From Schmidtea polychroa (lineage: Eukaryota): DNA of 64,000 nt. The translations under genes and the position numbers were made by a program. The stretch is from NCBI GenBank assembly GCA_044892525.1, contig CM097885.1, positions 16,246,001-16,310,000 of the forward strand. The letters are read 5' to 3'. Below are positions 21,663 to 60,422 of the stretch, one piece after another. Positions within the stretch are counted from its first letter, which is position 1, and every line of letters starts with the position of its first letter. The notes beneath the pieces are model-generated. The model did no database searches, was not told where the DNA came from, and worked only from the letters and a program-made list of their open reading frames with translations.

Positions 21663-22595
21663 ATCACATCTGAGGTTAGTTTTTTTTTCAACATAAAATA
21701 ATATTAAAAATTTGAAAATAATATTGAAAATAGTGTGGGTATCTTATATTTATAAAGTACTTGTATATTTTATTTTATTTATTTTATTTTATTTTATTTT
21801 TTTATTAATTAATTATTTTTTAAACATAAATATGAAAAAAAAAATATTGAAACGGGTGATGGTGGCGAACCGGTAATTATCGCCACCTGTCTTTCGAACA
21901 CCCCCGGATCGATCCCGGTAATGTGCACATTTATTTCTCAGTTGTTTTCGGACCTCTTTCGGATTCGCTTTCGAATTCATTTGTACTTTCGAGCAGCACA
22001 CTTAAAACGCCGTTGAAATCGACTTCGTGAGCGAGAAGCGAATAATAAGGCGTGCTGCTATTATCGGATTGATTCTGATGTATGAGTCTGGCCAGCTTGT
22101 ATATTGGAAGAGATTTGATAAACGAAAGAGGTTGATAAATAAAAAAAAAAATTATCCGGATCAAAAAAAAACTGTTGAGGGGACAGTGAAAAAAAAAAAA
22201 AAAAATACCACTGTCCCCTCAGAGCAGTTTTACTATTTTCATAAAATTTTTTATTTTTAAAACTTACAAAACCTTAAGGTGATCAGGCGACCTAGATCAT
22301 TATGAATTAGGTAATCTGATATTCTTATAACATTAAATCCTTAAGACCAAGTAGTGAGGAATCTATGCACCCCGTTACCTTTTCTCGGAATTACTAATCT
22401 ATAAATACATCTATTCCGAACTTTTTTACTTTTAAGGGAAGAAATTAAGGGTTAATGGCAATAGGGGACAAAGTTTAAAAGTTAAAAAAAGTGAAGAATA
22501 TGGGGTAAAAAAGCATATAAATGTGGAAAATATGGGTCAATAGCGCTGTTTTTTTTTAGGGTGGGGGTGCTGGGGTGCATAGATTCCTCACTACT
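21663..22595 (-). mobile_element. Left-arm remnant of Polinton B
   Basis: Reverse complement of 58786-59718; ends ..CCTCACTACT followed by CCCCTC. Confidence 0.9.
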
Positions 22596-25500
22596 CCCCT
22601 CACCTCCTCTGCCTGAGAAATCCAACTCTTATAACCTTACCCTACTTACCGACTCAATTGAGGAACCCAAAATATATCCCTCAGTTAGACCATCACCGCT
22701 AGATGACTCTGCAACCATAACCCCTGTTAGGTAAGAAAAGAAAACCTACAACTTTTATTTCTCCGAAAACATTGACCTTGATAGATCGTCCCCTATTCCT
22801 AAAAGGCTTATCCCTGTCGAAAACACTGAACGTAAATCACCAAACCTTATAAACCTGAAAGACACTATACCCTCTGATAAAGAGACACCAAAGTACGCAA
22901 CCACATCCACTCCCATCCACCACAGAAACGACATAAAATTCCAAAAAAGCCTAGAGGTTAGAGGTAAAACGTACACTCTTAAACCCCCCCCCCCACCTTA
23001 GATCTCATAAAGACGAGAAAAACTATAATAAATAAAGATACAATGTCCAAAGACATAAATAATGAAATATTATACTACTTTGATCTACGGGGCAAAGTAC
23101 AGTGTCGTGGATGCCACCATACTTCTTTTTGTGGACAAATTTCTGCCACTGATATTGATAGGATTAGGTCACACGCCCAAGAAATTCACAACATCGCTAT
23201 AACCTACGACTCTTTGATTGACTGCCTCCAATGTAGACCCAAAGGGGAAGGAAGCAGATCTATCCTGAACACCATCACCCTTAGAAACCTATATAATCAC
23301 ATTGATCAATTTGAACACCACTGTAGCGTCAGCAAGGACTTCCTTAAGATTATTACCCTGAAAATTGCTTCCACAAACCGTTTTTTATGCCACAATCTAA
23401 ACAAAAACTGCAACAAGTGCTTCCAAACATTCGACATTGACACCCCCTTAGATACAATAAGCACACATAAGTCAAAACACCATAAAAATTTAAAATTCGA
23501 CATTAACTTAAAAATCTATTGCTTTTGTGGAGAGTGGATAAAATATCAAGACTCCAAAAACCATATCGAGGGTAATCACCCCAACAGCCCAAACAATATT
23601 GATCAATATACCAATACAAATGAATTAAATAATACTAATAAAAATAATCTCTTTATTGATATTCTGGATACCCAAAACCCCAAAATAACCCCAAATAATG
23701 AAATCGTCTCGAGAGACATACCTGACAATATTCTATTCTCCAATAACATTGATAAAGAGACCACATGATGGTCACAACATACTATTAAGGCTTTCATCTT
23801 TTCTTTTGCCATCAGACCAACTACTATCTTTGTAGACCCTTATATAGGTAATGCCCTAATACAACATAACTTCAAAACCTTCTTCGAAACCTTTCCTTTC
23901 AAAGATTTCTCCGATTGGAACGAGATCATAATGCCAATGTGTCATGCTAAAGACAACTGGTTTTTCTTCTTTCTAGATAAGCATCGACAACTCGCAGTTC
24001 TTATTGACCCTTTAACCGATGAAAGCCTCTCTACTCATCATTCCCTTGCCAATAGCATTCTTGAAACCATCTTGGACTTACAAAAAATTGTTTCTCCTAT
24101 CGACATACAACTCCAATACCTTGAATACCCTAGATGCAGCACTCCTAATGAATCAGCCTTTTTTGTATGTCACATGATAGAATGCCTGATGAAAAATGAT
24201 AGGATTACCTCGCCTAGTATCCAGAATATGATTAATAGAATCAAAATTATCATCAATAAAATTTTAAATAATAGAATTGCTAGTGATGATGTTCGAAAAT
24301 ATCGACCATTCATCAATAGCCTCATAATTAATTTAAATACAGATGCGACCGACTGCGATACAGTCCTCTGTGAAATAGAAAAGATAAATGAAAATATTAA
24401 TGCCTTAAAATACAATAATAAAAAACCGGCTGACATCATTCATAAGAGGAAAAAACTTGACAACGAACTATTAGTTATTAAAAGGAACAGATACAAATTT
24501 GACCCCAAGGAGGAGATCTCTAAGATCCTAAATAATGAATGTAACTTTCAAAAACCTACTATGACCAATATTCTCAAACTGTTTGCAGGGAAATTAGTCA
24601 CCTCAAATCCGCTCTCTATTAACCTCCTTTGCTCCTTCCCAGAAAATCACTCCTCTACTCCCTTTGATACTGATGAGATCAAATACATCTTCTCCAATCT
24701 TGACAATACCGCTCCAGGCTTAGATCTTATCACACTTGCCAATTGGAAAAAAATATCACCAGACTTCGAACTTCTTCTCTCTATATGTAATAACATCCAA
24801 AGGAGTTCCCTCTGTCCATCTACATGGAAAACCTTCCGAACAAAACTCATCCTCAAAGCCGGTAAGAATGAGATAAGCCACGAGGCCAGCTCATGGAGAC
24901 CGATCTCCATCATGAATACAGCATACCGCGTTTTCTCCTCACTTCTTAATAACAGACTCCTTGGATGGATCAAAGAGGGTAATCTTATCTCAAAAAATCA
25001 GAAAGCAATCGGCACTCCCGATGGATGCGCTGAACACAATCTTATCCTTCAACTCATTAAGGATGCCTCCATACGAAACAAATCAGACCTTCATATTGTC
25101 TGGCTGGATATCACTGATGCCTTTGGCTCTTTACCACATGACCTCATCTGGCATACTCTCTCTACAATAGGTTTACACCCTAACACCATTAGGCTGATAA
25201 ACAATATGTACGACAATGTTAAGACCATCTTTGACTGCGAAGGTGAAAAATCGCCCTCAGTCCCCATCCTGAAAGGAGTGAAACAAGGATGCCCACTCTC
25301 CATGACTCTTTTCTGCCTCTCTATCGACTATATTATTAAAAATATCCTTCTCTCTCACCCCTTCATGTTTGGTGATATGAATATTGGTATTTTAGCATAC
25401 GCGGATGACATCGTACTGATCTCAGACTCTTACCCATCAATCACCTCTGCTCTCCTTGAAACTATTCGTCTCGCCTCACTAGCCAATCTAAAATTTAAAC

Positions 25501-27430
25501 CTTCGAAATCTGGTTACTTCCACCTAAATGACCACCAACCAATTAAACTATATAATGAGATTATTCCAAAAGTAGATGACTCAAACTTCTACAGATACCT
25601 AGGAGTAAACTTTGCCTATAAGAAAAGACACAACATTGATGAAAGACTTGAACTCGCTATTAATGATACCGAAAAAATCCTAAACTCACATCTTCACCCA
25701 TCTCAGAAGATTAATGCCTTCAAGATATTCATACACTCTCGATTGATCTTTCCTTTCCGTAATTGTGAAATTCTCCATAAAATACTAGACTCTCATAAGG
25801 ATACCATCATAAAAGATCGTGTCCCCCAAAAAGGTTTTGACAATAAGATAAGAAAAATGATAAAAACCTCTCTGGGGGATAAACTCTTGCAATTTAACAA
25901 CAACTTCCTATACGCCTCTATAAAAATGGGCGGAATTGGTCTTACCGCTGCAATTGACGAATATATCATACAAAGCATAGTACACCTCTCACGTGCTCTA
26001 AACTCATCAGATCTCACCTTTCGTAATCTTGTCCTCTCAGAACTTGCGTTAGCACGTGGCCAAGGCAACCTCGAAGCTGCAATATAGTGGATTAATGGTA
26101 ACATCTCTAAATCCTTTCCAACTCATTCCATCTTCTCGGAATTCAGGAAATCTGTCGATCTGCTTCGTAGGAAATATGGGATACATGCAAAAATCGTACT
26201 TATGGAAGACCTATACCAACTTGAAATCAAATATAAAGAGAGAATTAATTACTTTAATGAACATAACATGAAGGACATCTCCTCTGAACTACATTGCATC
26301 ATCGGTTTTATACATGCAGAAAAATGGACGATCTTAACATGTCAGGGTCATATTGCCAAATCCATCACTGATAGCAGCACTGCTGACTTCCTCCTCAAAT
26401 CTGATACACTTAGTGACGCCCAATACTTCTTCCTTGTTAGGGCTCGCAACAACCTGCTGAAGTTAAATTTCACACCTCATCGACTGTAAAGTAAAAAATC
26501 TATCCTCTGTAGGCAATGCAACTCACACCCCGAAACACAGGCCCACATATTCAACCATTGCCCTGCGAAAATTAATGCGCGCAGAAATAAGCACTCCCGT
26601 GTCCTTGAAGCGGTATGTGAATGTCTCTCTAATTATAACTTTCACTTAGACATTGAAATTTCACCTCAGGGTGTAAATACAACTCTTAAACCTGACATTC
26701 TCATAAAATCCTCTAGAAATAAAGACATTCATCTACTCGACATAAAAGTCCCCTACGAACAAAAAGAAAACTTTAAAACTGCAGTTAAAAATAACTATAT
26801 TAAATACGCTAACCTGGCCATAGATATTGAGAAATCATACAAAACCAAAACTACTATCTCAGCCTTGGTAATCGGTACTCTGGGATCCTGGGATAGTAAC
26901 AATAACCAGGTACTTAAAAAAATAGGCCTCACGAAACAAGAAATTATAGGTCTAGCTCGGAAAGCCTGCACGGCTGCCGTCATAAGTAGCTACCATATCT
27001 TAAGAGAACACACCCTCAAAGACTAATATTTTTATTTATACATATTTGTACTCAACGCATTGATTACTATCTATATTGTACATTATGGCTATATTATATT
27101 CATATTAAACTATCTTCCTAAGTATTACACTCAATAATTAATTAATATCTATCATAGAAAATCCTCCTTGGGCGTCGACACATCCTTTATTATATACTAT
27201 TATAAACTTATTATTAAAAGTACTTATATGGTAACAATATTGTACATTATGGCTCTATTATATTATTAAATAAATAAACCAATGATAAATTAATATATAC
27301 TTATAAAATAAAATTACAATAGCATTGTTGAACCTCTAACTTAATTCTCATCTCAACTTGTGACTTTCCTATCTTAAAATCATCATAAAACACAAAACTC
27401 CACTACTATATTAATATGCTAGTATAAACA
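22596..27430 (+). mobile_element. NeSL-like RLE non-LTR retrotransposon (Zn fingers, Ulp1-like domain, RT, CCHC, PD-D/ExK endonuclease), copy 1
   Basis: One frame 23043-27026 with only in-frame stops at 23766, 26085 and 26487; YADD, CRQC..ETQAHIFNHC, KPDIL..LDIKVPYE, IGTLGSW. Confidence 0.9.
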
Positions 27431-27498
27431 TTATTCTATGTTATTATTATCTATATTATTGTTATCATTATTATTATTATTATTATTGTTAATATTAC

Positions 27499-27586
<88 letters not shown>

Positions 27587-27619
27587 ATTATTATTATTAT
27601 TACTCTTAATTATTATTAA

Positions 27620-27694
<75 letters not shown>

Positions 27695-27764
27695 TATTTT
27701 TATTATTATTACTACTATTATCATTATTATTATTACTCTTAATATTACTATTTGTTACTGTTGC

Positions 27765-27824
<60 letters not shown>

Positions 27825-27860
27825 TATTATTATTATTATTATTAATATTATTATTATTAC

Positions 27861-27927
<67 letters not shown>

Positions 27928-27950
27928 ATTACTACTATTATTATTATACA
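27430..27950. repeat. (ATT)n microsatellite tract
   Basis: Directly visible; source of the poly-I/L/N/Y ORFs. Confidence 0.98.
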
Positions 27951-28260
27951 TATCATCATTTATAATTACGGTACTACCTGTCAATCACCGAATGGGTTAA
28001 TGTAGGAACCCTTGTAGGGGTTCTGCCTATTTGGTGGTCTTTTTAGTTGTTCATATTAATACTATAATCATTTGTACTATACTATCTCTACTATAATCAA
28101 AAAAAAACATGTTCTCCCCTTCGGCTGGAAGCCAAGAAGATTTTACTAAAATAAAATTTGATTTTTTTTTTTTTTTTTTACAATTATTATTATTATGATG
28201 CTGATGATGATGATGATGATGATTAGCAACGGTAATAGCAACACATTGGTATCACCCCTC

Positions 28261-28547
28261 AGTAGTGGGGATATATCCCTAACGACCACAGGCCTCCCAC
28301 TGTTTTCATGTTTTATGGCCATTTTACCCCCAAAAACGTACAAAAAAACACTAAAAACCCTTAAAAACCTATATCTTTTAATTTCTTTATTCTGAAGACA
28401 TTTTGGTTTCAAAATAAAGACTTAAAAAAAAACAACAAAAATATTAAAAAAACAACAAAAATATTAATAAAACGGGGAAAAAAATACTGATAAAACTATG
28501 AAAAACGTTTGTCGGCTTGCGGTCGTTAGGGATATAAACACACTACT
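28261..28547 (+). repeat. Left terminal module of A, itself bounded by inverted repeats
   Basis: Ends in gcggtcgttagggatataaacacactact, an inverted copy of the terminus. Confidence 0.9.
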
Positions 28548-28740
28548 TGAGGATGTCAACTAGCAAGTTGCTATTTGACTAATTTATAATTTTATAAATC
28601 TTAATCTTGAAGAATAAAAAATTTTATGAAAATAGTAAAACTGCTCTGAGAGGACAGTGGTATTTTTTTTTTTTTTTTTTTTTCACTGTCCTCTCAACAG
28701 TTTTTTTTGATCCGGATCATTTTTTTTTTTTTTTATTTCA

Positions 28741-29038
28741 ACCTCTTTCGTTTATCAAATCTCTTCCAATATACAAGCTGGCCAGACTTATATATCAGAA
28801 TCAATTCGATAATAGCAGCACACCTTATTATTCGCTTCTCGCTCACGAAGTCGATTTCATCGGCGTTTTAAGTGTGCTGCTCGAAAGTACAAATGAATTC
28901 GAAAGCGAATCCGAAAGAGGTCCGAAAACAACCAAGAAATAAATGTGCACATTATAGAATCGATCCGGGGGTGTTCGAAAGACTGGTGGCGATAATTACC
29001 GGTTCGCCACCATCACCCGTTTCAATATTTTTTTTTTC
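28741..29038 (+). ncRNA. Candidate structured non-coding RNA or ssDNA element in Polinton A left arm
   Basis: Several long-range helices, GAAA loops, terminal T-run; conserved in B at 59249-59546; strand is inferred. Confidence 0.45.
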
Positions 29039-29170
29039 ATATTTATGTTTAAAAATTAATTAATTAATAAATAAATAAATAAAATAAACAAGATTTATTT
29101 CCTAAGATACCCACACCATTTTTCAATATTATTTTCAAATTTTTAATATTATTTTATGTTGAAAAAAAAA

Positions 29171-29245
29171 CTAACCTCAGACGTGATTTGAACCGCTAGC
29201 ATTTGAACCACTGTGCCAGTCTATTCCCACTGCGCTATCGGAGTT
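29171..29245 (-). ncRNA. tRNA-like Pol III unit A1
   Basis: Minus strand A-box TAGCGCAGTGG, B-box GGTTCAAATC, T9 terminator. Confidence 0.65.
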
Positions 29246-29414
29246 CGGATTTTTGTCATTTTTTAAATTTTTAATTAATAAAAAAATAAAATAAAATAAA
29301 TAAAATAAAATAAAAATAAATAAAAATAAATAAAATAAAATATTAATCTAAGATACCCACACCATTTTCAATATTATTTTCAAATTTTTAATATTATTTT
29401 ATGTTAAAAAAAAA

Positions 29415-29489
29415 CTAACCGTAGTTAGGATTTGAACCGCTATCCATTTGAACCACTGTGCCAGTCTAGCCCACTGCGCTATCGGAGTT
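29415..29489 (-). ncRNA. tRNA-like Pol III unit A2 (tandem duplicate of A1)
   Basis: A-box TAGCGCAGTGG, B-box GGTTCAAATCC, T9 terminator. Confidence 0.65.
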
Positions 29490-29525
29490 CGGATTTTTAT
29501 CATTTTTTAAATTTTTATTATAAAA

Positions 29526-30821
29526 ATGAATAATATAAATCTTAAAATTCAAGAAAAAAATAAATTAAATCTTGATTATAATAAAGAATTTACTCATGAA
29601 ATTAAAAAAAATGATATTTTAAAAATATCCCCAACTTCAGGATCTATTGCAAACTTAAATCGTAGGGGTGATATAGTTTTTCAATCTCTTCAAACATCAA
29701 ACCCAATAGATATTTGTAATGCCAAATTATATTATAAAATCGAATTAGAAATTGAAGCAAACAAAGATATAACCCTAGAAAATAATTTCTTTCCAAATTT
29801 ATTCTCCAACATGAGATTAAAACTAGGATCATCAGAAATTGAAACTGTTTTGCACCCAGGAGTATATTCTACAATGTTAAATTTTATTTTAACTGGTTGT
29901 GATTATAAAAACGAATATGGTGAATTAACAGGTTGGATTCCTGATGTTAATAAAGGAGATTTAGATAAAGATGGTTTAGATGTAAACCATGGTTACTATA
30001 AAAGAGCTGAACTTTATAAGTTGAAAAAATTTGAAGGTTATTTTGAATTAAAACACTTGTTCGGATTCCTTCAAAACTATAACCGGGTGCTCCATAATGT
30101 TTTTATAGAATTAGTTTGTAATAGAGTAGAAGGTGATAAAAGATTGTTCTATGGAGCTGCAGATACAAAAGCTAAATTAAAATTATCAACACTTGAATTG
30201 CATATACCTGAATGGACATTAAATCCACATTCTGAGATTAAACTCCTTGAAAGATTAAATTCCAACAAATCTATAAATGTAAATTATTTAAATAGAATCT
30301 GTAGTGAATTTAGTATGACAGAGGGTTCAACATATTCTATAAAGGTAGCAAATTTAGCATACCGACCAAGATATATCTTGATTGGATTCAAAGAAGTAGA
30401 TTCATCTTTCCAAAAAAATAACAATCTATTTATTCAAAAGATTGGAGATGATAATTTAAAAACAATCCAAATTCAATTAAATAGTTCTTATTATCCAATA
30501 AATAGAATGGAATTTAATATTGAAAATAATGAAAACATATTCCCATATCTAAATTATATTGAAACATGTTATTATTTCAAAGTTGAACCGCAATTAAGTT
30601 TAGAAGATTTCAAAAATTTATATTCTATATTTTGTATAAATGTATCAGACCAAGATGATCGCCTAGCTATAAATAATGTTGATGTTACACTTCATGTAAC
30701 AAAGGATTCTAATTTTAAAGCTAAAGTATATACATTAATATTAGAAGAAAAGAAAATAGAAATGAAATTATATGGTGGAAAGATTTCAATTATTGAAAAT
30801 GTTAAGGGAGATTCTTCATAA
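29526..30821 (+). CDS. Major capsid protein (double jelly-roll, Polinton PY)
   Basis: 431 aa; LENNFFPNLFSNMRLKLG..IE, RPRYILIGF, IFCINVS motifs; genomic context. Confidence 0.85.
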   Translation: MNNINLKIQEKNKLNLDYNKEFTHEIKKNDILKISPTSGSIANLNRRGDIVFQSLQTSNPIDICNAKLYYKIELEIEANKDITLENNFFPNLFSNMRLKLGSSEIETVLHPGVYSTMLNFILTGCDYKNEYGELTGWIPDVNKGDLDKDGLDVNHGYYKRAELYKLKKFEGYFELKHLFGFLQNYNRVLHNVFIELVCNRVEGDKRLFYGAADTKAKLKLSTLELHIPEWTLNPHSEIKLLERLNSNKSINVNYLNRICSEFSMTEGSTYSIKVANLAYRPRYILIGFKEVDSSFQKNNNLFIQKIGDDNLKTIQIQLNSSYYPINRMEFNIENNENIFPYLNYIETCYYFKVEPQLSLEDFKNLYSIFCINVSDQDDRLAINNVDVTLHVTKDSNFKAKVYTLILEEKKIEMKLYGGKISIIENVKGDSS

Positions 30822-30850
30822 GTAGATTCCCCCATAAAAAAACTTTTAAA

Positions 30851-32263
30851 ATGAGTAAATATTGGACATGTGAAAGTTGTAATTGTCAAGTTACAAGACA
30901 TCACAAAGCAAGTCATCTCAAAACTAAAAAACATACGAGAGTTGATATTACAGGAGGCGACCTACAATCTTCAAAAACAACATCTACAATATTAAAACCT
31001 TTTACTACAGAAAAATATCCAGGTGAAAGACATTTATTCCGTCACAATTATACTGGGCCAGGAACAAGATTAGATATTAGATTAGATGAAAATAATAATC
31101 CTAAACAAGGAGAAGAACCAATAAATAGAATTGATCAAGCAGCTTTAAAACATGACATTGCTTACAACTCTGAAGATCTTAGAGATAGACATGTTGCTGA
31201 TGTGAATTTAATACATGATTTAAATAATATACAAAATCCATCAAGCAAGGAAAAGATTCAAAGAGCTCTAGTTAAATTAGCAATGAAAGGTAAGATTTTC
31301 ATAGGCTTAGGACACAGTCCGATCACCATGGGTGCAAGATTTCCTAGGAAAGCAAAAGATGTTGCTAATAAAAAGATTATCGAACAAGCAGAGATTGAAA
31401 GATCCCTCGAGAGTACAGCTAAGACTAGTTTACAAACCCCAACAGAATCAGAAATAAAATATGCTAATGAATTACACCATGAATTTAGAAAAAATAAAAA
31501 ATATTTAAAAGTTCAAGTACATGAAAAAGATCAAACATGGTCTGCAGATTTAGTCTTTATGCCAACCAAATCATCAGACCCTGAAAAATATAAAATAATT
31601 TTAACAGTAATAGATTTATATACAAGATTTGCTTTTGCAAGGTGTTTAGAAAATAAAACAGGATATTCTATTACAGAAGCATTTGAAAATATATTTGAAG
31701 AACATCAAAGAATTCCAAAATATTTATGGTGTGATAAAGGAACAGAATTTTATAACAAAGTTTTTACAAAGTTTTTAAATGAAAATGATATTAAATTATA
31801 TTCAACAGAAAACGAAGGAAAAGCAGTCGTAGTTGAAAGATTAAATAGAACATTAAAAAATAAAATGTGGAAATATTTTACTGCTATTGGAAAACAAAAA
31901 TGGAACAATGAATTGTTACAAAAGATTGTAAATGAATATAATAATGATGTACATAGTTCTATAAAATCAACACCTTTAAATGCTTCCATGAAGCCTGAAA
32001 CCATTAAAGTGGTAAATATTGAAAATGATGTTATTGTTGATACAACCCCTATAAAACCAAAGTTTAAAATTGGTGACCGAGTAAGAATATTTAAATATAA
32101 AAATAAATTTGAAAAAGGATTCACAGCAAAATGGACAAATGAAATTTTTATTATAAATAAAATACATTATACAACTCCAATAACATATAGCATCATTGAT
32201 TTAAATAATGAAAAAATATTAGGTAGATTTTATAATAATGAACTACAGAAAACAGATTTTTAA
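30851..32263 (+). CDS. Zn finger + parvovirus-type PLA2 domain fused to a retroviral-like DDE integrase
   Basis: CESC..HLKTKKH; NYTGPG..DQAALKHDIAY..RHVAD; WSADL, WCDKGTEF, VERLNRTLK. Confidence 0.92.
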   Translation: MSKYWTCESCNCQVTRHHKASHLKTKKHTRVDITGGDLQSSKTTSTILKPFTTEKYPGERHLFRHNYTGPGTRLDIRLDENNNPKQGEEPINRIDQAALKHDIAYNSEDLRDRHVADVNLIHDLNNIQNPSSKEKIQRALVKLAMKGKIFIGLGHSPITMGARFPRKAKDVANKKIIEQAEIERSLESTAKTSLQTPTESEIKYANELHHEFRKNKKYLKVQVHEKDQTWSADLVFMPTKSSDPEKYKIILTVIDLYTRFAFARCLENKTGYSITEAFENIFEEHQRIPKYLWCDKGTEFYNKVFTKFLNENDIKLYSTENEGKAVVVERLNRTLKNKMWKYFTAIGKQKWNNELLQKIVNEYNNDVHSSIKSTPLNASMKPETIKVVNIENDVIVDTTPIKPKFKIGDRVRIFKYKNKFEKGFTAKWTNEIFIINKIHYTTPITYSIIDLNNEKILGRFYNNELQKTDF

Positions 32264-32274
32264 GTCGACAAGCC

Positions 32275-33054
32275 CTAAAACAAACTTTTCCATATTTCAG
32301 CTTCTTCTCTATCCAAATAAATATAATTATATTTTTCTTTCCAATGATTATCAACAAACATATCAAACATATTCTTATCAGGTTCAACATTTGAAAATAA
32401 ATCATTATAAATCATATTCTTATCACGCTTGTCTAATTTAAAAAATATAAAACAATTAGAATTATTTCTTATAGAGTTTTTATCTAAAGCATAATATGTT
32501 TGAGATATATAAATAACATTACAATTATTATGTCGACCTCGTGTAAAGTAACTCTTTTGAATCTCTTGATTTTTCATATTAACAACATCATCAAATATAA
32601 CTAGATTCTTTTTATCTTTAGGAAGTAAATCACAATGTAAAACATCTTCAGGTTTATTAGAGAATAAGATCTGGATTCCATCCCCTATATAATCATTTTT
32701 ATTACTAATATCTGATTCTAAAATCTTTTCCTTGTACCAATCAACCATATCACAAGGATGAAAAACCTCTTCGGGATATGTATGTTGATTTTTAAAAATA
32801 TCAATTATAGCTTTTTTAGTTAATTTATTTTCAAATCCACATTTCAAAAGTTGTAATTCCGGTTGGTTAATGGTTGTAGAATAAAAGATTAAATTATTAT
32901 AATCCAAAAATCCATCTTCTAATAACATTCTCATAAGAAGAACATTCTTTCCACATCCAGAAGATCCAATAATTAAGCATCTAAAATTATCAGGAAATAC
33001 TTTAATATTAAATTTAGATTTATGTCTATTTAAAATTGGTTTCCAAGTATCCAT
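32275..33054 (-). CDS. FtsK/A32-like DNA packaging ATPase
   Basis: Walker A GSSGCGKN, Walker B VIFDD, RGRHNN. Confidence 0.93.
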   Translation of the reverse strand: MDTWKPILNRHKSKFNIKVFPDNFRCLIIGSSGCGKNVLLMRMLLEDGFLDYNNLIFYSTTINQPELQLLKCGFENKLTKKAIIDIFKNQHTYPEEVFHPCDMVDWYKEKILESDISNKNDYIGDGIQILFSNKPEDVLHCDLLPKDKKNLVIFDDVVNMKNQEIQKSYFTRGRHNNCNVIYISQTYYALDKNSIRNNSNCFIFFKLDKRDKNMIYNDLFSNVEPDKNMFDMFVDNHWKEKYNYIYLDREEAEIWKSLF

Positions 33055-33070
33055 TTTTATTTATTATAAA

Positions 33071-33586
33071 ATGACAACACAAAACCCTACAGAGGAATCT
33101 TTGCAAGAATTAATAAATTCAAATAAAAATAAATCAGTAGTAATCTCTGGTAAAAAATATTTTATTGGAAAACATGTAAAAGAACAAGTTGAAGAAAAAC
33201 TAAAGGAAGGAGGGATTCTTCCTCTGGCGGCTTTAATACCTGCAATCATTGCCGGACTATCAGGTGCTGCTGGAATAGCTGGAGGAATTGCAACTACAGT
33301 TCAAAAAGCTAAAGAATCTCAAAAGACAGACCTAGAAAAAGAAAAACTACAAACTGAAATCGAGAAAATGAAGGGAGGGAAAGGTCTTTATCTTGATCCT
33401 TATAAAGGTCGTGGTTTAAATGATTTTTTAAAAAATCAAATTTCTACATCTGAATCTTTATCTTCAAAAGATAAAGATGATTTAAAAAAAATATGTAAAT
33501 CTTTAAAAAATGGATGTCTTTGTAAAATTAAAAATGGTAAAGGTTTATACTTGAAACCCTTTCCAACGGATCCTTTACCAAAATGA
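33071..33586 (+). CDS. Putative virion core or membrane-active protein with adenovirus pX-like segment
   Basis: GGILPLAALIPAIIAG and repeated GKGLYLxP. Confidence 0.6.
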   Translation: MTTQNPTEESLQELINSNKNKSVVISGKKYFIGKHVKEQVEEKLKEGGILPLAALIPAIIAGLSGAAGIAGGIATTVQKAKESQKTDLEKEKLQTEIEKMKGGKGLYLDPYKGRGLNDFLKNQISTSESLSSKDKDDLKKICKSLKNGCLCKIKNGKGLYLKPFPTDPLPK

Positions 33587-33608
33587 TACCATTTTTAATA
33601 CCATTAAA

Positions 33609-34406
33609 ATGGTATATGAAGAAAGATTAGCACTTTTAAAAGAATTACAATCAGAACAAGATAAATATAATAAAAAAGATACAACTCAACACGCTGAATC
33701 TATAATATTAAATGAGGTAATCCAACAACAACAAGGACCAACAATTAAAGCCATAAAAGAGTTAGAAGTTTTAAAATTTAAAGAGTTGGAAGATAAACAA
33801 GATTTAAAAGAATTACCATGGTTGGAAGATTTAAATATAAAACCTCTTATACTTGATCCTAAAATTAATGTGAGTTTAAGTAAAACAATTAAACCTACAT
33901 TTAATATTAATGTTGAAGGATATCAAATAATAACAATTAATAAACATGACTTTCTGTTATATTTATATTCAGAAAATAAATCACGTATTCATTCACAAAA
34001 TGTTTATAATACTAAACACCTAGATTTTGAATTTACAGATGATTTTTATGGATTAGTTTGTGGATATCCCTCAGAGAATGTTGATCTTCTAGAAATTAAA
34101 AAATATTTAAATTTAATAGAATTAGTACATGGTAGTGCTAAAGCAAAACATATTCAAGATTTAAAGAAATATTTAAATAAAAATGAAAGGGGTTATATTG
34201 TCACAGAAGGAGAGGGCCAGGGTCAGGGCCAGGGAAAGGGTAAGGAGATAAACCCAATCAATCTTTTTATTGAATTAAGAAAACTATTAGCAGCTAAAAA
34301 AGCAGGACATAATAATTTAGATTCTGATATTTTAAAGATTTCTAAAGAATTATTAAAACAAGGAATAATTTCAAAAGATAAATTTAATAAATATACGAAG
34401 TTATAA
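33609..34406 (+). CDS. Polinton protein of unknown function
   Basis: 265-aa intact ORF, GxG repeat, C-terminal LLAAKKAGHNN..ELLKQGII. Confidence 0.7.
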   Translation: MVYEERLALLKELQSEQDKYNKKDTTQHAESIILNEVIQQQQGPTIKAIKELEVLKFKELEDKQDLKELPWLEDLNIKPLILDPKINVSLSKTIKPTFNINVEGYQIITINKHDFLLYLYSENKSRIHSQNVYNTKHLDFEFTDDFYGLVCGYPSENVDLLEIKKYLNLIELVHGSAKAKHIQDLKKYLNKNERGYIVTEGEGQGQGQGKGKEINPINLFIELRKLLAAKKAGHNNLDSDILKISKELLKQGIISKDKFNKYTKL

Positions 34407-34428
34407 ATACGAAGTTATAAAATATAAA

Positions 34429-34860
34429 ATGACTCCTTCAATATTAGATTTTTTAAAAACATTTGGAATAAATACAAAAACAAATTTTGATTTAAAAGAT
34501 TATGCAGATTATTTAAATTTAAAAATAAAAATATTAATGAATGATGAATTGTCGAGTCTGAAAGAAGACACTCCAAAGAATATCATTATAAATTATCAAA
34601 ATTCAAATGAAAAAGGATCTCATTGGGTTTTTATATATAATAAATCTATATACTTTGATTCTTTTGGGATTAAACCCACTAAAGAAGTTGAAGACTATCT
34701 CTCGGACTACACTTTTAATTCATTACAAGTTCAACCTAATAATACTAAAATATGTGGTATTTTAAGCTTATATGTTTTGTATAGATTGAATAAATCCAAA
34801 GGAGAAGGTTTCACTTCCTTAATCCAAGAAATTTATAATGATTTAAAATCTATACTATGA
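34429..34860 (+). CDS. Adenain-like cysteine protease
   Basis: GSHWV, YFDSFG, QVQ..ICG (His-Asp-Cys triad). Confidence 0.92.
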   Translation: MTPSILDFLKTFGINTKTNFDLKDYADYLNLKIKILMNDELSSLKEDTPKNIIINYQNSNEKGSHWVFIYNKSIYFDSFGIKPTKEVEDYLSDYTFNSLQVQPNNTKICGILSLYVLYRLNKSKGEGFTSLIQEIYNDLKSIL

Positions 34861-35627
34861 AAATGGAGCTTCGCAACCTTCCGGAAGATAATTTAAAAAA
34901 AATGGTAAACATAATGTCAGATAAATATTCAAGAACTTTATCTATAAATTCAAAAGAATCAGACTTTACTATAAACTTTCAAGATTCAATTAAATTAGAT
35001 CAAAATTTAAATTATGAATTAGGACTATTATGGTTTTGTGCTTATAATACTATTTTTAATATAACTAAAGATAATAACATATTTTATTATATAAGCCCAA
35101 AATCTACAGATAAGATTATAATAACAATCGAACCCGGAGCTTATGAGATAAAAGATTTAAATAATATACTTTCTAAAAAAACAAATGGAGTCATTAAAAT
35201 TAAAATGGATTTACCAACTTCAAAATGTATAATGACTTTAGAGAATATAGGAATTCATTTTCAAAATAATAGTTTCTTTAGAACAATTTTAGGATTTACA
35301 CGAAACCATTATATCACACCTGTAGTTGAGAATATAACATCAGAAAATATTATAAAAATAATAAATACAAACACAATAAATATTCATTGCGATTGTATAA
35401 CAGGTTCTTATAATAATGGTAAACAAACAAATGTTTTATATTCCTTTCCCTCAAACACAGTTCCTATGGGATATAAAATAGTTGAAAGAATGAATCCTCC
35501 AAATTATTTACCTTTATGTAGAAAATATATAATGGATATTAATTTTAAAATTCTTAATCAAGAAGGAGAATTGATTGATTTTAATGGAGAAGAGATTTCA
35601 ATGTATTTACATTTGAAACAGGTTTGA
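34857..35627 (+). CDS. Minor capsid protein (penton, PX)
   Basis: IEPGAYEI, NIHCDCITGSY.NG...VLYSF, IDFNGE. Confidence 0.85.
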   Translation: MKMELRNLPEDNLKKMVNIMSDKYSRTLSINSKESDFTINFQDSIKLDQNLNYELGLLWFCAYNTIFNITKDNNIFYYISPKSTDKIIITIEPGAYEIKDLNNILSKKTNGVIKIKMDLPTSKCIMTLENIGIHFQNNSFFRTILGFTRNHYITPVVENITSENIIKIINTNTINIHCDCITGSYNNGKQTNVLYSFPSNTVPMGYKIVERMNPPNYLPLCRKYIMDINFKILNQEGELIDFNGEEISMYLHLKQV

Positions 35628-35664
35628 ATACGAAGTTCCACATGTCATTTTAAATTATTAATAA

Positions 35665-36675
35665 ATGAGTTCTTATATTCCATGTAATAGAGGTGGTGGA
35701 ACAATAAAAACAGGGTTTAATACAGAAGAAATATTAACTTTAACAGAAAATAAATATATTAATGAAAGAGGTGATTCAATGAAGGGTGATTTAATTTTAA
35801 ATGGACACAAGATAAAAGAATTATCTTTTCCAACTGATGAAGCTGATGCAGTTAATAAGAAATATGTTGATGGTGTTAAAAATTATACTGATTTAACAAC
35901 AACAAGAATTGAAAGTTCATTAACAACAAAAATGGATTCAATGGAATCAAAGCTTAATAATATCGAACAACGATTTAATGATAAATTTGACAAGTTACAA
36001 AGTCTGTTAACTGAACAAGTTGTAAAGTTAAATACTAGCATATTAAATTCTAAAGATAAACAAATTATGAATACTAAATTTAATACAATATATAATATAA
36101 TAAATGAGATGATTACATCATTTAATAAAAGAATTTCAAATTTAGAGTCTCATGGAACACACATTAACACCACACATAGTATTAGAAAAAGAGCTGCTGA
36201 ATTAGAACAGAATAAAACATTATTACCCCATACATATAAACATTTTATAGAACCAAGTTTAATAACAACAAACAGTAAAGAATGGGGTGTTTTTATGGTT
36301 GTAAAGATTATTGATCCTTATTTCTTTTTGTTTGATGATGATAATGAAAGAATGAAATGGTTTGTGAAATGTGATTATAATAGTAAGCTTGAAAAGGGTG
36401 ATGTTATAATGACTAGTTATGATTTACCACACGGAGATTGGTATGTTAATACTCATTCACATGGACTACATAAAGTTAAAAGTAAGAATATTATTTTTAA
36501 AAGCACACTTGTACAATATATAGGTTTAATATTTTATGAAAAAAAGGTTGATGTTGATGAAGTTCGTAAAGCATTGAGAGAATTGTATAAAGATATCCTC
36601 TCAACAAGAGTTTCTTTTGATATCCGAGTATTGGTGACAGATGGTGCTCAGAAGAATAAAGTCTTATTTTTTTAA
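35665..36675 (+). CDS. Putative fibre/spike protein
   Basis: GDLILNGHKI..PTDEADAVNKKYVD tail-fibre-like motif, coiled coil, C-terminal globular part. Confidence 0.55.
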   Translation: MSSYIPCNRGGGTIKTGFNTEEILTLTENKYINERGDSMKGDLILNGHKIKELSFPTDEADAVNKKYVDGVKNYTDLTTTRIESSLTTKMDSMESKLNNIEQRFNDKFDKLQSLLTEQVVKLNTSILNSKDKQIMNTKFNTIYNIINEMITSFNKRISNLESHGTHINTTHSIRKRAAELEQNKTLLPHTYKHFIEPSLITTNSKEWGVFMVVKIIDPYFFLFDDDNERMKWFVKCDYNSKLEKGDVIMTSYDLPHGDWYVNTHSHGLHKVKSKNIIFKSTLVQYIGLIFYEKKVDVDEVRKALRELYKDILSTRVSFDIRVLVTDGAQKNKVLFF

Positions 36676-36683
36676 TTATTAAA

Positions 36684-37305
36684 ATGGACAAAGTCCAAAA
36701 GATGGAAGAAGTAAGAGAAGAAAAAAATTTATCCAGAGCTCCCTCCAGAATTGAGATCATCAGGATATTATTTTTCCAAGGCCTCGGCTCCCACAGAACT
36801 TGAAATTATGAGAGTAAAAGAATTTAAATCAGAAACCTTACATTTACAAGATTTATTAAAGCATTATAAAAAAATTAAAAATAGATGGAATAAAGGGAAT
36901 ACAGTTTTAAAAGTTATAGGTTATTCTTTAGGATTTGCATCTGCAATATTAACAGTTATTTTACCCATAACTTTACCAGTTGTTACTCTTGCACCTGTAA
37001 TACTTGGAAGTATTTCTGTAGCTGATGGTTTCTTAACTGAAATAGTTTCATTATCTTATACTTCTAAAAAGAAAAGTTTATATAGAGAAGTTTGTTTATC
37101 AATAGAATTAGGAATCTCTAAATTATTTTTATTTCAATTAAAAGCTTTGGAAGATGGAATCTTAACTGATGATGAAATAATGAAATCAAATCAAATAATA
37201 CAAGATATTAAAAATAATATTAATAGATTAAAAAGTGCTAATGTTATAAGTAATGAATATTCTAAAAAAATTAAACGAGAGAAGTGGCTAAAGAATCATA
37301 CATAA
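36684..37305 (+). CDS. Hydrophobic-hairpin Polinton protein (gasderminX-like); likely start 36684 with a 1-nt frameshift in the A7 run at 36721
   Basis: Two hydrophobic segments and KALEDGILTDDE; removing one A joins MDKVQK.. to IYPELP.. Confidence 0.6.
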
Positions 37306-37378
37306 AAAAATTTTTTGCCCTTCAAAAGGTTGATGTTGTCACTCTTAAATTAATTGTTGACATTTTTAAAAAAAAAAA

Positions 37379-40300
37379 TCATTTGATAGAATCTGATGTT
37401 AACTTTTCGAAATTAGTTTTTAGAACCTCTTTATGATCTTTAAATTCTTTATCACTTAGACCTTTTATATATTCAGGATCAGTATTAAAATATTTAAGTT
37501 CTAAAGATATAGGATTAAAAACTTGAGAATATAAAGGTCTGTCAATTCTTGGGGGATAAATGATCTCAACTCTATAAATATCAAGATCAGTAAGATTTAA
37601 ATCATAGACTTCATTTATTTTATCAAGACTTTTTATTATAGGGATTAAATCATTTCCTATAGGTAGTGTTGTTTTCATATCAGACAAGATGAATCTTTTG
37701 TCATCATAATTTGATAATGATACTTTTTGGGATTCTATCAAGTAGATATCATGCTTTTCACTTTTAAGTTGATGTACTTCATCAATTTTATCTTTATGAC
37801 CTGGATTCAATGTGTCTTTATAATCTTGATGAGAAAGTTTCCTGGCTACACATCTCTGAATTCCTTTACATCTGTTATCCTTTACAGGTTTCTCGGCTTC
37901 CAGTCCTCCCGGGAATATAGGATATCTATGTGTAATGCTTTCTTCTGTATCTGGGGTTTTAAATATAAATGTATGCTCTTCAAATTTAGGTTTTGTAAAT
38001 GTTTCGTATGAATATTGTTTAGCACGAATAAATATTCCATTTTCTATTGGGGTATTTGGTTTTTCATCTTTAAATGAAAATAACTCTCCAGATGAATTTA
38101 TTAAATTTGAAAGTATAGGATTTTCAGATATATCCCTTTCAAGGTCCTCAGTTCTTATTGTTAAAAACATTGAATCTGTATCCATTGCATGCATTGCTAT
38201 ATTAGGACCATATATAGGATGTAAGACATTATAATATGTTTCATACATTTGCAATTTTGAAAGTTCTAAAATTGCAAAGCCTATAAATATTGGTTTATTA
38301 TATGTTTTCTCAAAATTCTGTAGTTCTACTGCAGTAAGATTTTCAGAAAATACTTGTGCGTTTTTAAATGTAGGCTTTCCTAGCATACGATTATAACGGG
38401 CTACATCTTTTTCACTATTTGTCAAGAGTTCTATATTAGTATACTTGTCCACATTCTCCATTGTTTTCCCAAAGACTGAATTGTTTAAAAGTTTATAACC
38501 ATTGTCTTTTAAAAGGTTACCTTCTCTTTTTGCAATGTTTCTACAACGGATGTTCTCCTCGATGAAAGTCTTCATGAATGCTGCTTGTTTAAATCTTATG
38601 ACACTATGAACTTTTTTTAATATCATTCCTTGTGAAAGATAAAACTGTAGGAGTCTATAGTGACAAAGATAATAAGTTCGATCTGTTTGATCACAAAGAA
38701 GTTTCACTGTTGGAGGTTTATCTTGTGAGATTTGCCAGGATGAAAGTTCTTGGACATTAATCTTTCTTCTTATAGGAGCTAGAGGGAAATGTCTTGTTCC
38801 TGATTTTATATCACCTGGGTAATCGAGGTCACATTCTATAAAGTATCCTATTGGAGAATCTTTAGGGGTTGAACGTATTTCTTTTATAAGGTCTTTTAGG
38901 GTGGAACTCTGTATGGATTCTTCTTCTTCTTCTTCAGAGGAGGAGTATATCTCACGAAAGTCACTCATTGGTAAATACTGAGTCATAATTCCTGAATATA
39001 AAGCTGTTGCATCTATATAAAGTATAAATAGAGGATTTTTCATTCCTTCTAATACTTCTTTTAGTTCCTCATCGTTAAGTTTTATATATGGATCATCAGA
39101 GAGCATTCGGCTAGTAGTTATTGCATTTCTAGCTTTTATTTCTCTATTCCCCATTACTGAGGATACTCCTCCTCTAATGTTTGTTTTAATTAAATTAAAC
39201 ATGTCTTGCTCGGTTAAAAGATCTATAATTTTATCAGATTCTGGAAGATCTGAAGTCCAAATGGTATATAACATAGTATCCCAAGCTAAAGAAGGAGCTG
39301 TTATATAATTATAAGGTTTTAGGACAAAAGACTTTGTAAACTCTTCAAAGCAATCTGCCAGAATGTAAACATCTAAGGATAAGTACATACTTGTATATTC
39401 TCCTAAAGTTTTACAGTCGAACAGGTGAAACATTTTCTGAGCTCGGGAATATTCAGTGTCTGTAATCCCAGATTTTGAAAGTAGTGAATAAAAGTACTCT
39501 TTCTCTGGTAATTTTGTTTCCTTATATTTTTCAAAGGAGTCAACGTAGTCATAGGGATATATTCCCTTCGCCAAGCATGCGGAATATTCTTCTGCTGGTA
39601 TATTATTTTTTTCCAAGAACTCCCGAGTGATTTTAAAATCTTCTAGCTTTAATGTTTTTGCTATGCCATCTAAAGACATTTGGAGAAAGTTTAAGGAATC
39701 TATAAATTTTAATTTCCCATATTCAAGTGATTTATATTTTTCCTTTGTTAAGCCAATAACCTTGAAAGAGTTTTTGGCATTTGCTGCTAGATGCTTTATA
39801 AATAGATGTACGTCATAACCAAAAAGATTATGAAATATAACTGGTACAAATTTAGGAGTATGACAATTAAGATTGCAATCTCTATGGGCTGCTCCTCGAT
39901 AATTATTTTCACTTTTTAAATGATCGTGATCTATAACCTTATCATTAGTTGGGATCTCTTGTTTGCACATCCAACAGTTGAATGTATTTTTATATTCTTC
40001 TAATTGTTGATCTGAAATATTTTGAGGATACTTTGTTTTTAATGCTTCAAATATTTCATGTTCTAGATCATTTATACTTGTAGTAAAATGATCCAAGACA
40101 TCTTCTGAAGTTCCTTGAAATGCATATTCTCTAGATTCTATGACTTCGGGATAATTACTTTTAAATAATAATTTATAAGCAGATGGTAATTGTTTAGTTT
40201 TTTTAACACTATTGGGTTTATTATTTTTTCTTAGAAAGGCCTTCAACCTTGTTGGTTTCTCCTTCTGTTTAGAGGCTTTCCATTCATCCATGAGTTTATA

Positions 40301-41722
40301 TTTTTCTATTATTTTTAAATATTGCTTGACTAGATCTTGTTTATGATTTATAGATTCAAAGTCTCCGTAAATTACTCCTAATGTTTGTAATAAATTTGAA
40401 AAGTTTTTAAAATACATCCTGGGATCTGTAGGCATTCTAATTAAAGCTGGTGAATCCTTTTCACAAAATCTTGCATGCTTAATCATGGAGTTTTCAGTTG
40501 TTGAATAATGAAGACATCTTTTACACATTCCTCCTCCACTAGTTGGATTCTCTGGAGATGTAAAAGCTTGAAAGTTTTTTATTAAAATATAATGTTGATT
40601 ATTTTCATGTTCCAAGATTAAAAGATATATCTCCCTCGTGCTATCGCTTCCCTGTATTTCATAATCAGAAATATAAATTGGAATAATATCTCTGCATCCA
40701 CGTCCCCATCCTTTAACATGTTCATAAATATTAAGTTTAAGATTATTTAGTTTTTCAAATTCTGGAATGTCTTCTAGTTTCATTGGATGCATGAATCCTC
40801 CTGGGAATATTAATTCATTTTCATATTCTTTGTATTTTGAAACTCTTTGGGGGTTTTCGGTTTGAGGATGTAAATGTGCAAGTATTGACCACATGAAACC
40901 TTTGTTATCCTTATTCTGCACATTTATAACATTTTTAGATTTAAAGGGTGTAGGAATATAGGATTTAGGATTAGGTGGTAATCCCCTCCAATAATCAATC
41001 ACTAAAGATTGGAAGGAATGAAATACTAAGTTTGAATCTCCTAATTCATTTTCAATCTCTTCTTGTTTTGCTTCGACTGCTTGAATTATTTCTTTGATGC
41101 TTTTATTAAATCCTCTAGTTGAAAATAAATATTTAAAAGGCATTGGGATTTCAACATCTAAAGGAATTGTGTCTTCTTGTCCTTGGCTTTGCGCTCTCCA
41201 ATATTTTGCTTTTATTGTGATTTTATATTTTATAACATTATACCTTGTCGGTTTATAATTTTTTAAAGCCTCACAGAAAGAATCTTTTATATTTTTTTTA
41301 TTTCTCTTTATATATTCTCCAGGGGTTGCAGGTCCATTAATTTTTAATTTAAATTCATCTATATGATTAAAATTATCCCAGTTGTATTTTTCTCTTTCAA
41401 CATGATCAGGTTCTCCTTCTGAATAACATTCCTCATCCTCGGGATTTTCTTTTATATGTTCTTTTAAATGTTTTAAATAGTAGAAATTTATTTTTGTTGA
41501 AAAGTTACAATGAGGGCATGTAAATACTTCTCTAAGTCTCCCGATACAATTTTCAAAATGTTTATTATATCCTGAATGTAGATATCTTCCTTTACATTTA
41601 GGACAGAGTTTTGAATTTGTGTCATTAAGATTATTTTCTTTTAGTAAGTGAGCCTTCGACTTACAGTGGGAAATTAATCCTGTTTTATTTTTAAAAACTT
41701 TATTGCAAATATTAGAGTTCAT
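37379..41722 (-). CDS. Protein-primed family B DNA polymerase with N-terminal Zn fingers and an endonuclease VII-like insert
   Basis: YGDFES, CWMC..DHDH..RGAAHRDCN, FHNLFGYD, KLLNNSVFGKTMEN, DTDS, YDDKR. Confidence 0.95.
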   Translation of the reverse strand: MNSNICNKVFKNKTGLISHCKSKAHLLKENNLNDTNSKLCPKCKGRYLHSGYNKHFENCIGRLREVFTCPHCNFSTKINFYYLKHLKEHIKENPEDEECYSEGEPDHVEREKYNWDNFNHIDEFKLKINGPATPGEYIKRNKKNIKDSFCEALKNYKPTRYNVIKYKITIKAKYWRAQSQGQEDTIPLDVEIPMPFKYLFSTRGFNKSIKEIIQAVEAKQEEIENELGDSNLVFHSFQSLVIDYWRGLPPNPKSYIPTPFKSKNVINVQNKDNKGFMWSILAHLHPQTENPQRVSKYKEYENELIFPGGFMHPMKLEDIPEFEKLNNLKLNIYEHVKGWGRGCRDIIPIYISDYEIQGSDSTREIYLLILEHENNQHYILIKNFQAFTSPENPTSGGGMCKRCLHYSTTENSMIKHARFCEKDSPALIRMPTDPRMYFKNFSNLLQTLGVIYGDFESINHKQDLVKQYLKIIEKYKLMDEWKASKQKEKPTRLKAFLRKNNKPNSVKKTKQLPSAYKLLFKSNYPEVIESREYAFQGTSEDVLDHFTTSINDLEHEIFEALKTKYPQNISDQQLEEYKNTFNCWMCKQEIPTNDKVIDHDHLKSENNYRGAAHRDCNLNCHTPKFVPVIFHNLFGYDVHLFIKHLAANAKNSFKVIGLTKEKYKSLEYGKLKFIDSLNFLQMSLDGIAKTLKLEDFKITREFLEKNNIPAEEYSACLAKGIYPYDYVDSFEKYKETKLPEKEYFYSLLSKSGITDTEYSRAQKMFHLFDCKTLGEYTSMYLSLDVYILADCFEEFTKSFVLKPYNYITAPSLAWDTMLYTIWTSDLPESDKIIDLLTEQDMFNLIKTNIRGGVSSVMGNREIKARNAITTSRMLSDDPYIKLNDEELKEVLEGMKNPLFILYIDATALYSGIMTQYLPMSDFREIYSSSEEEEEESIQSSTLKDLIKEIRSTPKDSPIGYFIECDLDYPGDIKSGTRHFPLAPIRRKINVQELSSWQISQDKPPTVKLLCDQTDRTYYLCHYRLLQFYLSQGMILKKVHSVIRFKQAAFMKTFIEENIRCRNIAKREGNLLKDNGYKLLNNSVFGKTMENVDKYTNIELLTNSEKDVARYNRMLGKPTFKNAQVFSENLTAVELQNFEKTYNKPIFIGFAILELSKLQMYETYYNVLHPIYGPNIAMHAMDTDSMFLTIRTEDLERDISENPILSNLINSSGELFSFKDEKPNTPIENGIFIRAKQYSYETFTKPKFEEHTFIFKTPDTEESITHRYPIFPGGLEAEKPVKDNRCKGIQRCVARKLSHQDYKDTLNPGHKDKIDEVHQLKSEKHDIYLIESQKVSLSNYDDKRFILSDMKTTLPIGNDLIPIIKSLDKINEVYDLNLTDLDIYRVEIIYPPRIDRPLYSQVFNPISLELKYFNTDPEYIKGLSDKEFKDHKEVLKTNFEKLTSDSIK

Positions 41723-41793
41723 TTTTAGAATAAATTTTTTTACTGGATCCTATGTTTTCTATTTTTCTATTTTTATTTTTCTATTTTTTTATT

Positions 41794-41899
41794 CACCAGT
41801 ATTGTATTCACCAAGACCTGGATTCACCAAGACCTGTAGCACCAAGACATGTAGCACCAAGACCTGTAGCACCAGTATTGTATTCACCAAGACCTATAG
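41794..41899. repeat. 15/16-bp tandem repeat (CACCAAGACCTGTAG) x7 upstream of pPolB
   Basis: Directly visible. Confidence 0.9.
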
Positions 41900-41907
41900 T
41901 TCCTCCG

Positions 41908-42150
41908 AGTAGTGGGGATATATCCCTCACGACCGCAGGCCGATATACGTTTTTCATAGCTTTATAGCCATTTTTCTCCGTTTTGTAGGCTTAAATCCAT
42001 ATTTTTTAAATTTTGCGAAATAGAGCAAAATAAAAAATGTGCGTTTTTAAGGGTTTTTAGTGTTTTTTTGTACGTTTTTTGGGGTAAAATAGCCATAAAA
42101 CATGAAAACAGTGGGAGGCCTGTGGTCGTGAGGGATATATCCCCACTACT
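41908..42150 (-). repeat. Right terminal module of A, itself bounded by inverted repeats
   Basis: agtagtggggatatatccctcacgacc at 41908 and its reverse complement ending at 42150. Confidence 0.92.
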
Positions 42151-58785: not shown

Positions 58786-59031
58786 AGTAGTGAGGAATCT
58801 ATGCACCCCAGCACCCCCACCCTAAAAAAAAACAGCGCTATTGACCCATATTTTCCACATTTATATGCTTTTTTACCCCATATTCTCCACTTTTTTTAAC
58901 TTTTAAACTTTGTCCCCTATTGCCATTAACCCTTAATTTCTTCCCTTAAAAGTAAAAAAGTTCGGAATAGATGTATTTATAGATTAGTAATTCCGAGAAA
59001 AGGTAACGGGGTGCATAGATTCCTCACTACT
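58786..59031 (+). repeat. 246-bp terminal module of B with perfect 24-bp inverted repeats
   Basis: AGTAGTGAGGAATCTATGCACCCC .. GGGGTGCATAGATTCCTCACTACT. Confidence 0.93.
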
Positions 59032-60262: not shown

Positions 60263-60422
60263 TATAAAATAAGTTGTTAATGTGTGACTATTTATTGATG
60301 AAATTAATAATTAATTATTCATTTTCTCGACAACTACCACTCAGATCGATCTGAAAATTTAAATATATACTAAAATCAGTACGCTGAATCAGATTCCGTT
60401 GAAAAAAAAATATCGAAAAAAA

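Follow-up and report, generated by a model that had tools for sequence, protein, structure and literature searches.

The window analysed here is a stretch of 64,000 nucleotides from Schmidtea polychroa, whose genome comprises 781 Mb at 30% GC and includes four large contigs. It holds a complete Polinton/Maverick, element A, and the left part of a second one, element B (Table 1). Pfam searches identified the hallmark genes of the group in element A, namely those for a protein-primed family B polymerase, an rve integrase, a packaging ATPase and a double jelly-roll capsid protein, and the hallmark (AGT)2//(ACT)2 ends and 6-bp target duplication are also present. A further candidate gene, without Pfam or significant PDB match, displays by eye the motif order His..Asp..Gln..Cys in its translation, which we take to be that of an adenovirus-type cysteine protease. 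Element A is a Polinton by all features tested but the protease, seen there by motif order alone. No Pfam family of HUH Rep was found in the 10 ORFs of A that were scanned, two of which (33609-34406 and 36808-37305) have no assigned family. End motif, 6-bp duplication, size and core genes are those given for vertebrate Mavericks (adintovirus-type Polintons) in the available text of PMC8097293; a PLA2-like gene, as in A, is described for Alpha-class adintoviruses in the excerpted text of PMC8502044.

Table 1. Coordinates of the features in the window
Feature	Position	Strand	Details
Inverted duplicate of 53380-59718	21663..28017	-	Left 933 bp of B and 5.4 kb of flank, including a reverse transcriptase gene
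Copy of B-left module	22350..22595	-	Inside inverted segmental duplication; not an independent insertion
Left 6-bp target duplication of A	28255..28260	+	CCCCTC
Polinton/Maverick element A	28261..42150	.	13,890 bp; AGTAGT..ACTACT ends; hallmark genes
A-left terminal module	28261..28547	+	Outer arm at 28261; inner inverted arm ends 28547
Double jelly-roll major capsid protein (A)	29526..30821	+	PF21738, E 4.6e-28
PLA2-like domain fused to rve integrase (A)	30851..32263	+	PF08398, PF00665
A32-like packaging ATPase (A)	32275..33054	-	PF04665
Likely adenovirus-type cysteine protease (A)	34429..34860	+	His..Asp..Gln..Cys order by eye in translation
Protein-primed family B polymerase (A)	37379..41722	-	PF03175, E 3.9e-15
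A-right terminal module	41908..42150	-	Inner arm at 41908; outer arm ends 42150
Right 6-bp target duplication of A	42151..42156	+	CCCCTC
Polinton B, left part	58786..64000	+	Continues to window-equivalent 73929; whole element 15.1 kb
B-left terminal module	58786..59031	+	246 bp; 24-bp identical arms 58786-58809 and 59008-59031

The initial annotation had described four self-palindromic terminal modules in the window. All four were confirmed at their coordinates: each starts with AGTAGT, ends with ACTACT and bears an inner inverted copy of its tip. The palindromy itself is restricted to inverted arms of 24-36 bp, the middle of the module being non-palindromic. Moreover, the module counted as a further B-left end proved to be a segmental duplicate of the left 933 bp of B with its flank, since positions 21663-28017 correspond to 59718-53380 with 99.6% identity over 6.36 kb; the window therefore has three independent modules. 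In A-left (287 bp), the arms match at 23 of their first 26 bases and loosely to about position 55; over its outer 131 bp it has 92% similarity to the right end of A, and its inner arm belongs to another subtype. In A-right (243 bp), the first 27 bases of the arms are identical, and identity is 82% over 68. Four such modules in the window compare with none in 200 first-order Markov resamples. Folding predictions gave z-scores of -10.2, -6.5 and -4.6 for the three independent modules, and in all three the 3' tip is predicted to land on the inner arm.

The right end of B (window-equivalent 73684-73929) bears the same module as its left end. B resembles A in capsid (421/431 residues identical) and integrase (444/470), and its polymerase is 58% identical to that of A; the integrases are this close although the arms of A and B are nearly unrelated. 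The exact 30-base type-B inner arm occurs 1416 times in the genome, in about 700 elements. Type-B copies are near-identical and ~14.7 kb long, with module identities of 99.6-100% among the 40 scored. Contigs of runs X5 and X9 cover the body beside the B module and hardly the module itself; runs X1 and X2 cover both. These data hint at a very recent, local expansion of B, a gap in contig cover being weak evidence.

Several other observations were made around the two elements. Element B has no 6-bp target duplication, and 3.7 kb of its left flank (55091-58785) is directly repeated past its right end and a 541-bp spacer (G000:C1:16320471-16324167). It is inserted beside a non-LTR-type retroelement with a 241-aa ORF and a 718-aa reverse transcriptase, found at 23043-26087 and 55298-58342. 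An identical stretch of 8 bases lies just past the right end of A (42151-42158) and just past the outer end of the duplicated B module (22596-22603); the flanks bearing them are otherwise unrelated, and no such preference was seen at other insertion sites. A TRAF gene has undergone local expansion at 7576-16246 and 44326-48410, where RING/zf-TRAF and MATH copies lie in direct and inverted repeats of 91-97% identity.

End modules across the family

Searches of the same genome returned 159 candidates for A-left, 156 for A-right and 886 for B; from each set, 40 were scored and 30 fetched, giving 90 loci. At all 90, the same arm stood outward on the host side and the inner arm led into the Polinton body. 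A further 41 elements were sampled by their ATPase gene, favouring the more divergent matches; they added many end types, and the capsid halves of their bodies are 85-98% alike. Altogether 155 modules were detected; setting aside 6 without orientation and merging duplicates left 135 distinct modules with 41 arm variants. Modules of the family measure 172-308 bp, with the outer 24-36 bp repeated in inverted orientation at the inner edge, beyond a loop of 120-240 nt. A tally by eye of the 41 elements found a module at one end or at both in 30, a partial module in 1 and loss of most of the inner arm in 6, the remaining 4 not being judgeable.

These modules make up the terminal repeats of one Polinton family, which integrates through its outer ends: target duplications match from outer end to outer end in 24 of 28 pairs, 2 further pairs being not scorable. 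Many elements have unlike left and right modules, and module types are swapped between left and right ends and among near-identical bodies. One element, L099, has unrelated B and C ends yet a matching target duplication. It was considered as proof of module capture in trans and rejected, since an intact element with that polymerase type (L130/L161) also has B modules.

The type-C loop, inner arm and junction are spanned by contigs of run X5, which has the same organism label and comes from another study, and of run X9 (another label), so that the end design is no artefact of this assembly. In the contigs of the runs no joint at the inner end was seen, these contigs being too short to argue absence. 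Searching the same genome with a 64% homologue returned the same family only. The capsid had no matches among viral contigs, and the ATPase alignment retrieved 15 distant viral-contig loci and 8 metagenome loci, none of these 23 having an interpretable terminus. Three gene-poor palindromic elements of the same genome have Polinton-type ends of another kind, whose first 900 bp contain no inner copy, and the inner-copy design is therefore specific to the present Polinton family. Giant palindromic satellites centred on the module were also considered and rejected: the three whose ends are covered have other termini and no inner copy, and the fourth was partly covered.

The survey also turned up variants of other kinds. 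In one element (L128:957-2920 and L144:8044-10000) the right end and at least 1 kb of flank form an inverted copy (98.9%) of the left end and flank, replacing the target duplication. A 411-424-bp element with longer inverted ends starting AGTAGAG, probably a MITE, occurs at two unrelated sites (L120:4280-4703 and L209:8490-8900), and one such element sits centrally in a palindromic polymerase-only element. Polintons with a B-like capsid half and an A/C-type polymerase were found (L113, L118-L119, L161, L165); the polymerase half was exchanged between lineages near its C-terminal end, and a ~460-bp partial duplicate is left in B. Two elements (L230 and L232) have extra AGT triplets at their outer ends, beside an AAT microsatellite, as terminal-repeat slippage would give.

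The two arms of a module vary together. Over positions 8-26 of 13 arm clusters, arms within a module agree at a mean of 18.2 of 19 positions versus 9.2 of 19 across types; the modules had been preselected for an arm match of at least 15/20, which inflates the within-module figure and not the between-type difference of the common sequence. Such agreement within modules was reached in none of 100,000 permutations. In an alignment of 22 modules, hand-chosen to span arm types, the 26 terminal pairs are 97.9% paired, and 20 of these pairs have changes on both sides. The alignment contains 127 two-sided cells versus 1 one-sided cell, with slid controls at 28-45%, a pattern which looks like copying rather than stepwise compensation. 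Agreement between arms declines beyond about position 27. The loops are loosely alignable, which makes common ancestry of the end types likely. In most cases arm type goes with polymerase clade (three elements, then one, being excluded from this comparison for short matches), as expected of an origin; an exception is the presence of B modules on a C-clade polymerase (L161). Copying between arms appears to be occasional and not to occur in every cycle, because about 20 of 30 A-left copies retain 3-4 arm mismatches. Copying would account for the inner-arm sequence borne by the outer tip in 7 of the 30, which may instead be an ancestral state, and for an inner-type base found in 2 outer arms of type C.

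Rearrangements at the inner arm

It had been proposed from the window that a module could move alone, like an IS or a MITE, or invert in place, and that A has four potential ends. The module does share one feature with such elements, being short and having terminal inverted repeats. However, none of the 135 modules has its own 5- or 6-bp duplication, and no solo module with its own duplication was found in the flank analysis of 90 loci or by the junction patterns of type B, A-left and type C. The A-left pattern had 0 matches; the type-C pattern had 6, namely the 2 outer arms mentioned above, in which a base is of the inner type, and 4 ends that lack 2 bases at the inner junction. Some type-C lineages are marked by small losses beginning at the inner end. 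Inversion in place found no support either. The outer arm was host-side in 90 of 90 modules, no inner type-B arm faces host DNA among 6 non-standard junctions, and 8 candidate flips resolved into 7 point variants and 1 tip extension. Inner repeats are kept in most copies, and the modules are not chance insertions of MITEs.

The proposal of four potential ends survives weakly. Of the 1416 type-B inner arms, 1410 start like a normal body (not read singly), leaving 6 exceptions by their next bases (4 with non-T, 1 with T then not G, 1 with TG then not G). Two of these are point changes. In the other four (L098, L099, L100 and L110) the inner ACTACT is joined precisely to an interior site that differs from case to case, and the three joins inspected overlap by 0-1 base; three of the elements keep a matching 6-bp duplication, and the fourth has lost its outer half. 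Uniform breakpoints would yield 0.024 such joins (P about 1e-8; 5e-5 if every element had a deletion). With 4 exact joins in 1416 type-B arms, the inner end is thus a rare precise breakpoint. By analogy, strand transfer of the inner 3' end by the integrase, the presumed enzyme, fits the four joins; piggyBac can undergo single-ended transposition into its own body, according to the available text of PMC3952818.

A different misfire was found in L104, whose outer tip has gained 49 bases. The initial 42 of these correspond to inverted body sequence adjoining the inner arm, and a 129-bp host duplication takes the place of the usual 6-bp one. This single case suggests that, ahead of integration, the tip annealed to an inner arm and was elongated; the inner arm copied could have belonged to another molecule. 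Duplications of such length accompany the integration of retroviral DNA that has one defective end (PMC5041404, in excerpt); the pattern fits insertion of one spoiled end by host repair, as in retroviruses.

Two elements (L132/L156 and L125/L157) have no inner arm at either end, yet are flanked by exact 6-bp duplications and have polymerase frames without stops, 1476 and 1490 residues long. Both have long matching terminal repeats and so could still pair their far ends. Because elements whose terminal repeats are long and identical can do without it, the inner arm is helpful rather than required. Inner-arm losses have occurred repeatedly, some being common to independent insertions and copied to both ends, and a loose end in run X9 (another organism label) resembles by eye the deletion junction of L125/L157.

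Readings of the inner arm

The predicted structure and the co-variation of arms bear out the panhandle fold that the initial annotation had suggested for each end, with a putative role as origin. On sequence and modelling grounds, we think it somewhat better than an even chance that each end acts as a local fold-back origin, with occasional copying from arm to arm. Strand-displacement replication would free a single strand, whose last ~250 bases could fold so that the tip pairs with the inner arm. The local stem would rebuild a double-stranded origin for protein-primed replication without pairing of the far ends. Trimming and re-extension of the folded 3' end, or a similar conversion, may occasionally copy the inner arm onto the tip, and overshoot of re-extension would produce a tip extension as in L104. 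Finally, the integrase may occasionally take the inner ACTACT as an end; acting on the stem of the opposite strand, it would generate precise deletions. We infer stem formation on replication intermediates, arm conversion and integrase use of the inner ACTACT from the patterns described above.

Alternatively, the inner arm could be a second binding site or outward-facing origin, read in duplex DNA by polymerase and terminal protein or by integrase, with arm pairing merely incidental. Its spacing, conserved at 172-308 bp, the exact terminal hexamer kept in the inner copy and the tracking of polymerase clade by arm type would all suit a binding site. We nevertheless consider this unlikely, since exact arm identity with almost no one-sided change exceeds the need of a common binding motif, the integrases of A and B are nearly the same while their arms are not, and the L104 extension requires base pairing. 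A little less likely still is a functionless by-product: an end would have been duplicated once in an ancestor, fold-back conversion would keep the copies alike from time to time, and loss of the inner copy would cost nothing. The repeated losses, some of them shared and copied to both ends, and the loose end in X9 are what such a by-product would leave. Against it, 30 of 37 judged elements have kept the inner copy even though it evidently tends to be deleted, and it is present in 13 of 13 arm types, the most expanded type (B) retaining it.

Two further readings have little left in their favour. That each module is an independently mobile mini-element, the Polinton being a composite of two, would account for the four precise inner-end joins and for the exchange of module types between left and right ends and near-identical bodies. 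It is largely refuted, and we regard it as very improbable: own duplications are missing from all 135 modules while outer ends carry them in 24 of 28 pairs, and none of the 6 non-standard type-B junctions is solo, a search which a solo copy with a flank starting TGG would escape. Resolution of rolling hairpins yields flip and flop orientations. A parvovirus-like terminal hairpin, in which the 3' end self-primes, a nick resolves the product and the end flips, is refuted for integrated copies, where flipped ends were sought in the modules and none was found; element A moreover encodes a protein-primed polymerase, and no Rep was detected in it. We give this reading the least credit of all, even though the fold sets the 3' end on a template, L104 displays one such extension, and a study of protist virophages proposes that their terminal palindromes are primed as hairpins (10.64898/2026.07.28.741278, in part).

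The local stem might have another use, as an exit device: presented on a single strand, an end-like duplex ending in ACTACT and followed by a flap would let the integrase free the provirus strand from host DNA end by end. We put this forward as a speculative possibility. It is similarly doubtful whether the precise inner-end deletions represent the same cut on the wrong strand, grafting new ends onto foreign bodies. If true, the exit device would explain the many end types on near-identical elements, and would answer how Polintons with a retroviral-type integrase leave the chromosome.

Relation to known termini and significance

In adenovirus, the displaced strand restores a duplex origin by pairing its inverted repeats into a panhandle. 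The ends of Sleeping Beauty, of the IR/DR type, are about 230 bp long with outer and inner sites of ~30 bp; those sites are direct, whereas the modules described here are inverted. The inside ends of composite transposons such as Tn10 can cause adjacent deletions; unlike these composites, our modules have no transposase gene, and none was seen as a solo copy.

According to the racket model of Polintons and casposons, a displaced or excised single strand regains a duplex origin through its inverted repeats, and casposons have internal palindromes and a panhandle model of their own (PMC4046053, in part). In the adenovirus panhandle and the racket model two far ends pair, whereas here each end could pair locally. 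Halocafeteria virophages and Polinton-like viruses have terminal palindromes with a proposed role in replication (10.64898/2026.07.28.741278, in excerpt), and share with the present family a self-complementary end on an integrating dsDNA element. Their palindromes are tight (52 nt in the example given, with a search gap limit of 10) and accompany mostly non-pPolB replication genes; here, arms of 24-36 bp enclose a loop of 120-240 nt, the polymerase is pPolB, and the arms co-vary. Streptomyces telomeres, in which fold-back extension repairs truncated ends, resemble the modules in that they cap linear DNA with terminal protein and that Palindrome I, at the 3' tip, can pair with its internal counterpart, Palindrome IV (PMC5449611, partial text). 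They differ in being bacterial, with a 13-nt palindrome and an internal origin with end patching, and the repair reported there used the Palindrome I hairpin and not a module-like pairing over longer range.

In the portions of the literature available, Maverick terminal inverted repeats are repeats between the two ends only; here each end has an inner inverted copy of its tip, and the two ends are often unlike. The words 'palindrom' and 'hairpin' are absent from PMC8097293, and the available parts of PMC6431247 and PMC8363768 contain nothing on inner tip copies. The literature searched holds no account of an inner, co-evolving tip copy in Polintons; the founding papers, Repbase and supplements lay outside it and may already note one. 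The co-evolving inner tip copy is a real, family-wide and new variation on Polinton end structure.

Polinton replication and excision rest on a far-end panhandle that we met only as a hypothesis, in the available text of PMC4046053 and of the Halocafeteria preprint. Loss of a PIWI protein elicits a response of Polintons (PMC8532177, in excerpt). For annotation, an inner AGTAGT or ACTACT can be mistaken for an element boundary or a MITE. With hundreds of young copies, at least 13 natural end variants and rare misfires, the family offers short, defined substrates for studying how polymerase and integrase recognize Polinton ends.
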